Position numbers and translations under genes: made by a program
Source: a phage
Assembly: GCA_020619395.1 (NCBI GenBank)
Contig: GCA_020619395.1_4860.1
Length of the DNA stretch: 64,000 bases
Strand: one strand, 5' to 3'
In this document: positions 6,603 through 8,198 of the stretch, piece by piece
Layout of the letters: the number at the start of each line of letters is the position of its first letter
How positions within the stretch are numbered: position 1 is the stretch's first letter
The notes under the pieces: generated by a model
What the model was told of the DNA's origin: nothing
Databases searched by the model: none
What the model saw: the letters and a program-made list of their open reading frames with translations, nothing else

Positions 6603-8198
6603 TTAGCCCATCACCGCTTCCAACGGAATGCCTTCTTCATCATCCTCATCTGCTTCAATAAGGAACTGGTTCTGCATACTGATTAGCTCGTTATGTAAAA
6701 CCATGCCGTGTTCTACGCGGTCCACATCAGTAGAAGACATAAAGCCGTTATCTGGACGGAATTGGAGTGCCAACTTCATCTCAGTTTCATCGACTGGCAA
6801 ACGTACCTGGAACTGGTCGCCATCGAAATCTCCATTTGCCATCTTGATCACACGGTCAGAGATACGCAGCGAACACTGGTTAACATCGGTAACAACTTCA
6901 TCGATGTACAGCGTTTGAATAGACAACTGTACCAGCGTTGGGTTACGTAACGGTATGACCATGATCCCAAGACCGCCTGGGGATTCACGAATCAGTTCTT
7001 TAAAGATTTCATCTACAAGCGGGTCATACTGCATTGCCGCTTTCGCAACGATACGTTCACACTGCCGTGACGAATAACCGCGTCGTAGCAGTTTGTTCTC
7101 GATGTGGGTCGACATCAACCCAACCATCCAACGCCATGGTGCTTTTAACTTCCAGGCATCATGTGGTTCTGAGATAGGTGAGATGGTTGCACGACCACCG
7201 AACGGGATATGGGTAGAACCCAATTTCGCACGATAGTCACCCGGTTTACCTTCCATAGACTCACGACGGAAGTCCATGTGGAAGTACGTTAACTGACGGT
7301 TCGCCTTCAAAGCGCGACTAATCAGAAAACGTGGTTCGATCGCTTTACGCCGCGTATAGAGCAACGCGATATTTTTCACCGCATCAATAGCACCCGTGAA
7401 CACTGGGTCTACCATGACACCACGACGACCTTCCTCAGTAACGATAAGTTTAGAGGAGATTAGCGGTAAGTGTCTTGGGAAGAATGCGTGACGTTGCGTT
7501 TCGAATAGCTCCTTCCATTGTAAACGTAAGCGTTCACCTTCAGCGGCGTTATGCCGATTAGGTGCGAAGATTTCCTTCCAGGCTTCTGGCGTGGTAAGGA
7601 TGTTAAAGATACTAACGTGGTTATCAACCAGATTGCGCAAGCCACGAACGAAACCGTGTTCTTCCAATACACGTTTCACAGCATGTGCGCGTTTACCGTC
7701 TGGTTCTTCTATACGGTAATACGGGTCAATCATCCACATCATCAAGTCATTACCGCGTTCGATAGTGACCTTGTTACGTTCAAACTTCTTCAACTTGCTA
7801 TTAAAGAAAGCATTGAACATTGCCCAGAATCGTGGGTTGACGAAGTTACCCATTTCATCAGGTGCACGTAACCAGACATCGGATTCAATTCGATGTTCAG
7901 TTACAACATAGCCACACGTCGGACACTTACAACCGAGATTGTAACGATGCGCGATCGGTGCCGGACAATCCAAACTACAAATCGGTGCAGAGTTCAGTTC
8001 TTCGTCAACGATTCTGTTCTGTACCATGCGATCGATAAGTTCAGCAACTTCGATCGCATCCCCGTTAACGGCGACATCGTTAATAATAGTGGGTGGTTTA
8101 ATACCTTTGGCTGCAGCTTCTATTTGCAAATCGGACAAATAGTTATCCTGACTAACCAACCGGCCGGATATTCCGTAGAATTTTGGTACCTTTCTCAC
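6603..8198 (-). CDS. multisubunit RNA polymerase beta-prime N-terminal-like subunit (probable non-virion RNAP)
   Basis: Cys4 cluster CSLDCPAPIAHRYNLGCKCPTCG near the N-terminus; RNPTLVQLSIQ...MANGDFDGDQFQVRLP matches the bacterial beta-prime RQPTLHRLGIQ...[14 protein letters not shown] catalytic segment; GTG start with GAGG upstream. Confidence 0.7.
   Translation of the reverse strand: MRKVPKFYGISGRLVSQDNYLSDLQIEAAAKGIKPPTIINDVAVNGDAIEVAELIDRMVQNRIVDEELNSAPICSLDCPAPIAHRYNLGCKCPTCGYVVTEHRIESDVWLRAPDEMGNFVNPRFWAMFNAFFNSKLKKFERNKVTIERGNDLMMWMIDPYYRIEEPDGKRAHAVKRVLEEHGFVRGLRNLVDNHVSIFNILTTPEAWKEIFAPNRHNAAEGERLRLQWKELFETQRHAFFPRHLPLISSKLIVTEEGRRGVMVDPVFTGAIDAVKNIALLYTRRKAIEPRFLISRALKANRQLTYFHMDFRRESMEGKPGDYRAKLGSTHIPFGGRATISPISEPHDAWKLKAPWRWMVGLMSTHIENKLLRRGYSSRQCERIVAKAAMQYDPLVDEIFKELIRESPGGLGIMVIPLRNPTLVQLSIQTLYIDEVVTDVNQCSLRISDRVIKMANGDFDGDQFQVRLPVDETEMKLALQFRPDNGFMSSTDVDRVEHGMVLHNELISMQNQFLIEADEDDEEGIPLEAVMG

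Follow-up and report, generated by a model that had tools for sequence, protein, structure and literature searches.

A non-virion RNA polymerase gene of an SPN3US-like jumbo phage, encoding the N-terminal half of a β′-like subunit

Much is known about how phiKZ-like jumbo phages (Chimalliviridae) transcribe their genes with two split polymerases, and a subunit gene met in such a genome raises the question of which part of which enzyme it specifies. Here this question is addressed for an open reading frame (ORF) of 531 amino acids, which the ORF listing places at 6603..8198 on the minus strand of a 64,000-nucleotide (nt) stretch of phage DNA (GenBank assembly GCA_020619395.1, contig GCA_020619395.1_4860.1; the whole stretch is termed the window). 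A preliminary description made from the letters of the window had given this ORF, with its GTG start but without a strand, as the stand-alone N-terminal β′ piece (β′-N) of a split non-virion RNA polymerase (nvRNAP) of a phiKZ-like jumbo phage, and our results bear out both the ORF and its assignment. We are highly confident that the gene specifies the N-terminal portion of the β′-like subunit, the largest and catalytic one, of a phage non-virion multisubunit RNA polymerase (RNAP); by sequence comparison it is the orthologue of gp23 of phage SPN3US and gp55 of phage phiKZ. The gene itself is already known, having been annotated since 2011 in the SPN3US genome and paired with phiKZ ORF055 in 2016, and cryo-electron microscopy structures of the orthologous enzyme are available. 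What can be fixed is the name of the subunit, which is the N-terminal half of nvRNAP β′ and not "beta," "alpha," or "beta subunit 3."

The protein (hereafter the RNAP protein, encoded by the RNAP gene) matched PHROG 2987 (phrog_2987, "RNA polymerase beta subunit") over its full length with an E value of 9.8e-180. In a single-sequence search of the PDB, the top match was phiKZ gp55, chain A of 7OGP, 7OGR, and 8QUE (E = 1.4e-38), residues 55 to 474 of which were aligned to residues 52 to 494 of the RNAP protein. It was followed by the nvRNAP β′ of phage AR9 (E = 2.3e-8), cyanobacterial γ, and bacterial β′, residues 329 to 480 of Escherichia coli β′ being found with an E value of about 9e-5. Conservation was analyzed, and a profile was built, with 28 homologues of 45 to 80% identity. 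With this profile, phiKZ gp55 was retrieved from the PDB at E = 1.8e-65, AR9 nvRNAP β′ at 1.3e-15, Thermus thermophilus β′ at 6.3e-9, residues 330 to 495 of E. coli β′ at 7.7e-9, and cyanobacterial γ at 4.9e-8. The profile search that the preliminary description had proposed as a check thus returned significant β′ matches.

The N-terminal Cys4 cluster and the RNPTLVQLSIQ and DFDGD motifs on which the first assignment was based are present in the protein. The sequence RNPTLVQLSIQ (residues 418 to 428; 6915..6947, minus strand) is the counterpart of R(Q/A)PTLHRLGIQ of β′, and R418 to L425 are invariant in the 28-homologue alignment, with position 426 excepted. Residues 453 to 468, MANGDFDGDQFQVRLP, include NGDFDGD (residues 455 to 461; 6816..6836, minus strand) with the aspartate triad D457/D459/D461. 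In all cellular RNAPs the three aspartates of NADFDGD hold the catalytic Mg2+ ion, and N455, D457, D459, G460, and D461 are invariant in all 28 homologues, down to 45% identity. The β′ correspondence that the preliminary description had drawn proved correct when the protein was aligned with Xanthomonas β′ and cyanobacterial γ: GKPGDYRAKLGSTHIPFGGRATIS pairs with their GKxGxxRxxLxGxRxxxSGR region, RNPTLVQLSIQ…RVIKMANGDFDGDQFQVRLPVD with RAPTLHRLGIQ…, and NGDFDGDQ with NADFDGDQ. Five cysteines are found near the N terminus (residues 74, 78, 90, 92, and 95). C90 is variable, but all four cysteines of the pattern C74-x3-C78-x13-C92-x2-C95 are invariant in the homologues. From its position, its pattern, and the alignment with gp55 from residue 74 on, this cluster (CSLDCPAPIAHRYNLGCKCPTC, codons 74 to 95; 7914..7979, minus strand) is presumed to be the equivalent of the N-terminal zinc-binding element of cellular β′.

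The gene begins with GTG and ends with TAA. The GTG is supported as the start codon because it is the first possible start past the upstream in-frame stop codon, because a GAGG Shine-Dalgarno sequence (8207..8210, minus strand) lies 8 nt 5′ of it, and because the conserved YGISG block (residues 8 to 12) would be lost if the next start-like codon (TTG, codon 14) were used. An identical GTG start is given in the SPN3US records, and Erwinia phage Asesino, a member of another genus, retains the GAGG and the string …T7-GTTGAGGTTG…GTG before its RNAP gene.

An AlphaFold2 model built on the 28-homologue alignment had a mean predicted local distance difference test score (pLDDT) of 75.2 and a predicted template modeling score (pTM) of 0.58. 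Strands were predicted at residues 329-331, 334-341, 350-354, 412-417, 430-436, 443-446, and 462-466, flanking the metal-binding loop, and the predicted double-psi β-barrel region (residues ~329 to 466; 6801..7214, minus strand) aligns to residues ~330 to 480 of E. coli β′. In a Foldseek search against the PDB, the best match was 8que_A, the phiKZ nvRNAP with DNA and RNA (E = 1.7e-29), followed by AR9 nvRNAP β′ (E = 4.1e-18), cyanobacterial γ (about 1e-13), and then bacterial β′. All of the top 50 PDB matches were RNAP largest-subunit (β′/γ) chains with a probability of 1.00. The structure-prediction check suggested in the preliminary description therefore led to N-terminal halves of RNAP largest subunits throughout, with phiKZ gp55 first. 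The double-psi β-barrel is assigned in the model by this fold retrieval and not by an explicit barrel topology.

Several observations weigh against the assignment to β′-N. The confidence of the AlphaFold2 model is moderate, with a pLDDT of only ~63 in the catalytic loop, and its TM-scores to solved β′ chains are low (0.25 to 0.47) with large root mean square deviations. We attribute the low TM-scores to the fact that an extended multidomain subunit was modeled without its partners. The Pfam family PF00623 (RNA_pol_Rpb1_2) matched residues 414 to 471 with an E value of 4.1e-4 and 21.1 bits, which is under the gathering cutoff of 25.3 bits, so that the family-level evidence was taken from the PDB and PHROG searches; a precomputed PF00623 match is present on several homologues. 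The sequence alignment to cellular β′ stops short of the N-terminal Cys cluster. Furthermore, we found no experiment on the nvRNAP of SPN3US.

The first 25 kb of the window were 98.5 to 99.0% identical, over the full length, to phage SPLA1a, the SPFM phages, and other SPN3US-like Salmonella jumbo phages, which form the genus Seoulvirus and have genomes of about 240 kb. SPN3US gp23 (SPN3US_0023; RefSeq ACQ60_gp243, YP_009153317.1) is identical to the RNAP protein in 530 of 531 residues, the sole change being the conservative exchange Y431F, and its length, neighbors, and gene order, like its GTG start, equal those in the window. The two genes differ at 35 nucleotides, and 34 of these differences are synonymous, indicating strong purifying selection. 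The phiKZ counterpart of SPN3US gp23 in the CoreGenes comparison of Thomas et al. (2016, PMC5105663; Table S1) is ORF055. In the databases the SPN3US protein is labeled "beta subunit," which is imprecise, as the protein is the N-terminal half of β′. Names in the databases are also inconsistent between records ("beta subunit 1," "beta subunit 3," "alpha subunit," "rpoC," or "hypothetical protein," for example in LR535902, OQ383623, and MT679221), and several SPFM records contain aberrant versions of the protein with very low query coverage, suggesting assembly or frameshift problems.

The protein of phiKZ is more distant. gp55 is of similar length (508 versus 531 residues), is homologous over residues ~52 to 502 of the RNAP protein, and has the position of the Cys cluster, RNPTL, N(A/G)DFDGDQ, and the split point in common with it, but the identity is only ~24 to 25%, and no part of gp55 aligns with the initial ~50 residues of the RNAP protein or with the acidic tail (EADEDDEEG) at its C terminus. 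The nvRNAP β′-N of Bacillus phage AR9 (PDB 7S00/7S01, chain d) is likewise a split β′-N with a matching double-psi β-barrel and the loop GDYDGD, but it is shorter (426 to 448 residues) and ~17 to 18% identical; AR9 has a uracil-containing genome and forms no phage nucleus (PMC7598289). In the case of cyanobacterial and plastid γ (RpoC1) and bacterial β′ (RpoC), a residue-by-residue alignment is obtained for the GKxGxxRxxLxGxRxxxSGR…R(x)PTL…NADFDGDQ region, but the identity is 14 to 17% and no sequence similarity is detected outside a stretch of ~180 residues (E. coli residues 330 to 495). The γ subunit corresponds to a β′ likewise split after the double-psi β-barrel (PMC7598289). The RNAP polypeptide ends about 70 residues past the catalytic loop, and similarity to E. 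coli β′ ceases near residue 495; the split point matches that of cyanobacterial γ and that of the phage's own paralogue described below. Unlike γ and RpoC, the RNAP protein is phage encoded, and the phiKZ and AR9 enzymes work without α, ω, or a cellular-type σ factor (PMC7598289).

A different assignment would be to the β′-N subunit of the RNAP packaged in the virion (vRNAP). Size and motif do not discriminate in this respect, since both phage RNAPs have a β′-N of similar size that is split after the catalytic loop. We nevertheless regard this assignment as very improbable, because the window has a separate gene of the β′-N type at 52930..54543 on the minus strand. Its product of 537 residues belongs to PHROG 2986 instead of 2987, contains GGDYDGDTG about 55 residues from the C terminus, and is identical in 536 of 537 residues to SPN3US gp240. 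The latter has the same architecture as the RNAP protein (~535 residues, with the metal-binding loop ~50 to 75 residues from the C terminus) but the motif DYDGD rather than DFDGD. Pairwise BLASTP detected no similarity between the RNAP protein and this paralogue, for which PDB and Pfam searches gave no sequence match; we identify it as vRNAP β′-N by its DYDGD motif, by its membership in PHROG 2986, and from the literature. In SPN3US, gp241 and gp218 were assigned as the N- and C-terminal parts of vRNAP β and gp240 and gp42 as those of β′; these four proteins were found in virions, gp240 being identified by mass spectrometry, and were lost from particles of the 241(am11) mutant, and gp244, also reported among the virion-associated vRNAP subunits, was proposed as the C-terminal-most piece of β′ (Thomas et al. 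2016, PMC5105663). These five vRNAP subunits are the only RNAP subunits of SPN3US for which an association with virions is reported. The gene of gp241 (β-N, 1401 residues, phrog_3148) adjoins that of gp240 in the window, at 48706..52911 on the minus strand. An ORF of 242 amino acids at 46155..46883, also on the minus strand, is probably gp244, as judged from its position and size relative to SPN3US_0244. The top match of the RNAP protein, in contrast, is phiKZ gp55, which is a subunit of a solved nvRNAP (7OGP). The separate vRNAP β′-N gene, the pairing of gp23 with ORF055, and the match to gp55 together identify the gene under study as that of nvRNAP β′-N.

It is also very doubtful that the gene product derives from β′ but has taken on a different function, for example that of a regulator or of a factor associated with the nuclear shell, instead of working as a polymerase subunit. 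This idea draws on the tight linkage of the RNAP gene to a gene predicted to encode the shell protein chimallin (see below) and on the lack of direct biochemical evidence for the SPN3US enzyme, but every residue of the catalytic site is kept and invariant, the phiKZ orthologue sits in the active center of a solved and active nvRNAP with DNA and RNA (8QUE), and partner subunits are conserved. As reported by Thomas et al. (2016, PMC5105663), gp35 is the C-terminal subunit of nvRNAP β′ and gp77 an N-terminal fragment of nvRNAP β. We found that SPN3US gp35 (31251-33356) matches phiKZ gp74 (E = 8.9e-39) and gp34 (29014-31251) matches phiKZ gp71 (E = 2.2e-29); in the SPN3US genome these two genes lie 3 to 7 kb past the left edge of the window, and gp77 likewise falls outside it. 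A search for further split subunits, as recommended in the preliminary description, was thus answered by the vRNAP β′-N paralogue and β-N within the window and by gp34 and gp35 in the near-identical SPN3US genome. The gene that follows the RNAP gene (6008-6589) belongs to an unrelated PHROG. The separate, conserved gp35 gene also speaks against the view, hardly credible to us, that the ORF is a decaying or nonfunctional fragment, or one exon of a gene split by an unrecognized intron or intein. The protein has only half the length of β′, and records of relatives show two pieces ("beta subunit 1 | beta subunit 2"), but the latter are explained by a group I intron confined to those genomes. The ORF in the window is colinear with the uninterrupted gp23 of SPN3US, an Rfam scan of the window returned only three tRNAs and no intron, and the invariant catalytic residues and almost exclusively synonymous substitutions argue against decay.

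As the N-terminal half of nvRNAP β′, the RNAP protein would, by homology with the phiKZ and AR9 enzymes, help to build the clamp, to which its zinc-type Cys4 element belongs, and would provide the double-psi β-barrel of β′, in which the D457/D459/D461 triad would bind the catalytic Mg2+ ion. The remaining part of β′ would be supplied by gp35 and the two halves of β by gp34 and gp77, and a fifth subunit resembling phiKZ gp68 is to be expected by analogy with phiKZ and AR9 (PMC7598289). In these two phages, nvRNAP is not found in virions but is made after infection, transcribes the late genes, and is resistant to rifampicin (Sokolova et al. 2020, PMC7598289). The assembled enzyme of the present phage would likewise be insensitive to rifampicin and independent of the host RNAP, would transcribe late and possibly middle genes, and would presumably do so within the phage nucleus and its wall of chimallin. 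Our observations concern sequence, conservation, predicted fold, orthology, and the presence of partner genes, and from these we infer, by this analogy, the assembly, activity, timing, and nuclear location of the enzyme.

The intron that causes the two-piece annotations was found in relatives that are otherwise at least 99% identical. In EC001, SPLA3, SPLA5c, 1252, JN03, and Lh1B, the gene was recovered by tblastn in two pieces extending over 1949 bp versus 1593 bp, and in Proteus phage 7 and SaP7 the tblastn match breaks at residue 456. The insertions are group I introns (Rfam RF00028), the one in EC001 scoring 69.4 bits and the one in Proteus phage 7 scoring 51.9 bits at a gathering threshold of 50 bits. 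They are inserted exactly between G456 and D457, which corresponds to an empty site at 6831|6830 in the window; the upstream exon ends with …GCT AAC GGT, and the intron ends with …AAACAG, followed by GAT TTC. The EC001 intron is 356 nt long (positions 2869-3224 of the locus examined) and contains no ORF. The intron of Proteus phage 7 has ~1.4 kb (~4369-5772 of the locus examined) and encodes a protein of 286 residues whose HNH_3 and NUMOD1 domains give it the make-up of a homing endonuclease. An intron of this long form also occupies the site in SaP7, where it includes a correspondingly placed ORF of about that size. Where relatives are annotated with "beta subunit 1 | beta subunit 2," the two calls are therefore artifacts of the intron and not two genes. 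A literature search for SPN3US together with group I introns found no paper describing this intron.

The codons at the insertion site differ between the alleles. The intronless window and SPN3US have GCA AAT GGA, whereas five of five intron-bearing alleles examined have GCT AAC GGT, so that the window differs from the latter by three consecutive synonymous third-position changes abutting the empty site. In more distant intronless phages the site reads GCT, GCA, or GCG followed by AAC GGT. It is conceivable, though rather doubtful, that the changes to GCA AAT GGA make the site a poor substrate for the HNH/NUMOD1 protein and that the phage studied here is the resistant type in an intron-mediated interference at the nvRNAP gene among cocirculating Seoulvirus phages. 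Alternatively, the GCT AAC GGT flank might simply have been coconverted with the intron, because the 5′ splice site of a group I intron needs a terminal U and P1 pairing.

The gene upstream of the RNAP gene (8281..10134, minus strand) is co-oriented with it and encodes a protein of 617 residues (SPN3US_0022; RefSeq ACQ60_gp244). No match to PDB sequences was obtained with the single sequence or with a 24-sequence profile, and a Pfam scan of its homologues flagged for PF25677 returned nothing. An AlphaFold2 model (pLDDT 74.6, pTM 0.77), however, retrieved nine chimallin/PhuN structures with Foldseek (E = 8.8e-21 to 5.3e-16; TM-scores 0.55 to 0.71), among them those of Goslar (7SQV, 8.8e-21), 201phi2-1 (7SQQ, 3.1e-20), and phiPA3 (8FNE, 5.3e-16), and the first nonchimallin match had an E value of 0.085. 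We identify the protein as chimallin (ChmA), the shell protein of the phage nucleus, from structure prediction and the Foldseek matches. The identification agrees with a previous study in which SPN3US "gp244," which in RefSeq numbering is the 617-residue protein, was listed as a chimallin homologue with about 10% identity (Laughlin et al. 2022, PMC9365700). Disorder is predicted for ~56 residues at the N terminus and ~40 at the C terminus, and these stretches may match the flexible terminal segments by which a chimallin protomer touches its neighbors. We take the gene order in phiKZ to be the same, with the chimallin gene followed by that of nvRNAP β′-N (gp54-gp55).

Between the chimallin stop codon and the GTG of the RNAP gene, a spacer of 82 nt contains, in this order, a hairpin, UUCCCUC-U7, GAGG, and the start codon. 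The hairpin is GC rich and has a stem of 10 bp (GGACGGGGGC-TAAC-GCCTCCGTCC, or GGACGGGGGC-UAAC-GCCUCCGUCC as RNA), and together with the following TTCCCTC-T7 it occupies 8214..8251 on the minus strand. The minimum free energy of the spacer was -28.2 kcal/mol (z-score, -1.8). Asesino retains the arrangement of the spacer, with a compensatory G-C to A-U (A-T) change in the stem. The hairpin is possibly a terminator- or attenuator-like element or one that stabilizes the 3′ end of an mRNA; its modest z-score and the beginning of the T-run 7 nt past the stem weigh against these roles. A simple scan for σ70 promoters and terminators near the RNAP gene found nothing above the shuffle expectation and missed the hairpin. 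To our knowledge, SPN3US-like phages do not use σ70 promoters.

The spacer offers no room for a separate promoter and contains no promoter motif. A candidate promoter element was found further upstream: the near-palindromic, AT-rich 11-mer AGATATTATCT had 11 matches in the whole window, counted on both strands with up to one mismatch, versus 0.5 expected. One copy lies 47 nt upstream of the chimallin ATG (10181..10191, minus strand) and a second one, TGATATTATCT, 140 nt upstream of it (10274..10284, minus strand). The sequence scan gave further copies at 658-668, 2074-2084, 18184-18194, 21150-21160, and 42057-42067, with the best match on the minus strand; one copy is found 35 nt upstream of the ATG at 2039 and another 60 nt upstream of the ATG at 21090, and most copies are located 30 to 140 nt upstream of minus-strand genes. 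In the SPN3US genome, an exact AGATATTATCT precedes gp34, the head of the gp34-gp35 nvRNAP pair, by 31 nt, and two copies lie upstream of the gene that comes before gp77, at distances of about 40 and 240 nt, always in the orientation of the gene. Asesino keeps the core GATATTAT at both of the sites that precede its chimallin gene. According to Sokolova et al. (2020, PMC7598289), every RNAP-encoding jumbo phage has a conserved AT-rich motif of ~10 nt in front of its early operons that vRNAP recognizes, and in phiKZ and AR9 the genes of nvRNAP belong to the early class. From its distribution, AGATATTATCT is a candidate early-promoter element for vRNAP.

The transcription unit that includes the RNAP gene probably begins with the chimallin gene, and promoter motif, chimallin gene, conserved hairpin, and nvRNAP β′-N gene form a plausible early operon. 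In such an operon, the injected vRNAP would start early at the AGATATTATCT elements and transcribe the chimallin gene, and part of the transcripts would continue beyond the hairpin to cover the nvRNAP β′-N gene as well as those packed closely behind it. The hairpin and T-run would lower the read-through, with the result that the shell protein would be made in excess over the polymerase subunit. The expression timing, promoter use, and hairpin role in this scheme are what we infer from the arrangement.

The preliminary description had placed the gene beside SSB-like (single-stranded DNA-binding protein) and SbcD-like genes in an early/replication module. An SbcD-like gene does exist (3733-4884; phrog_100, E = 3.3e-64), but it is located four genes downstream of the RNAP gene. 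The SSB-like neighbor was not confirmed, as neither an SSB nor an OB-fold signal was obtained for any flanking ORF (five in all) in PHROG and Pfam searches and the adjacent gene is that of the predicted chimallin. The three ORFs between the RNAP and SbcD-like genes and the ORF at 10320-11408 belong to PHROGs of unknown function and had no match in Pfam. A DNA polymerase gene is found nearby at 11764-14043, so that early/replication module is a fair description of the region. The three tRNA genes of the window, all on the minus strand, were located by Rfam at 22518-22589, 22592-22661, and 24017-24089 with scores of 30.6, 40.9, and 65.6 bits, respectively, and a tRNA-Trp is annotated in this region by relatives.

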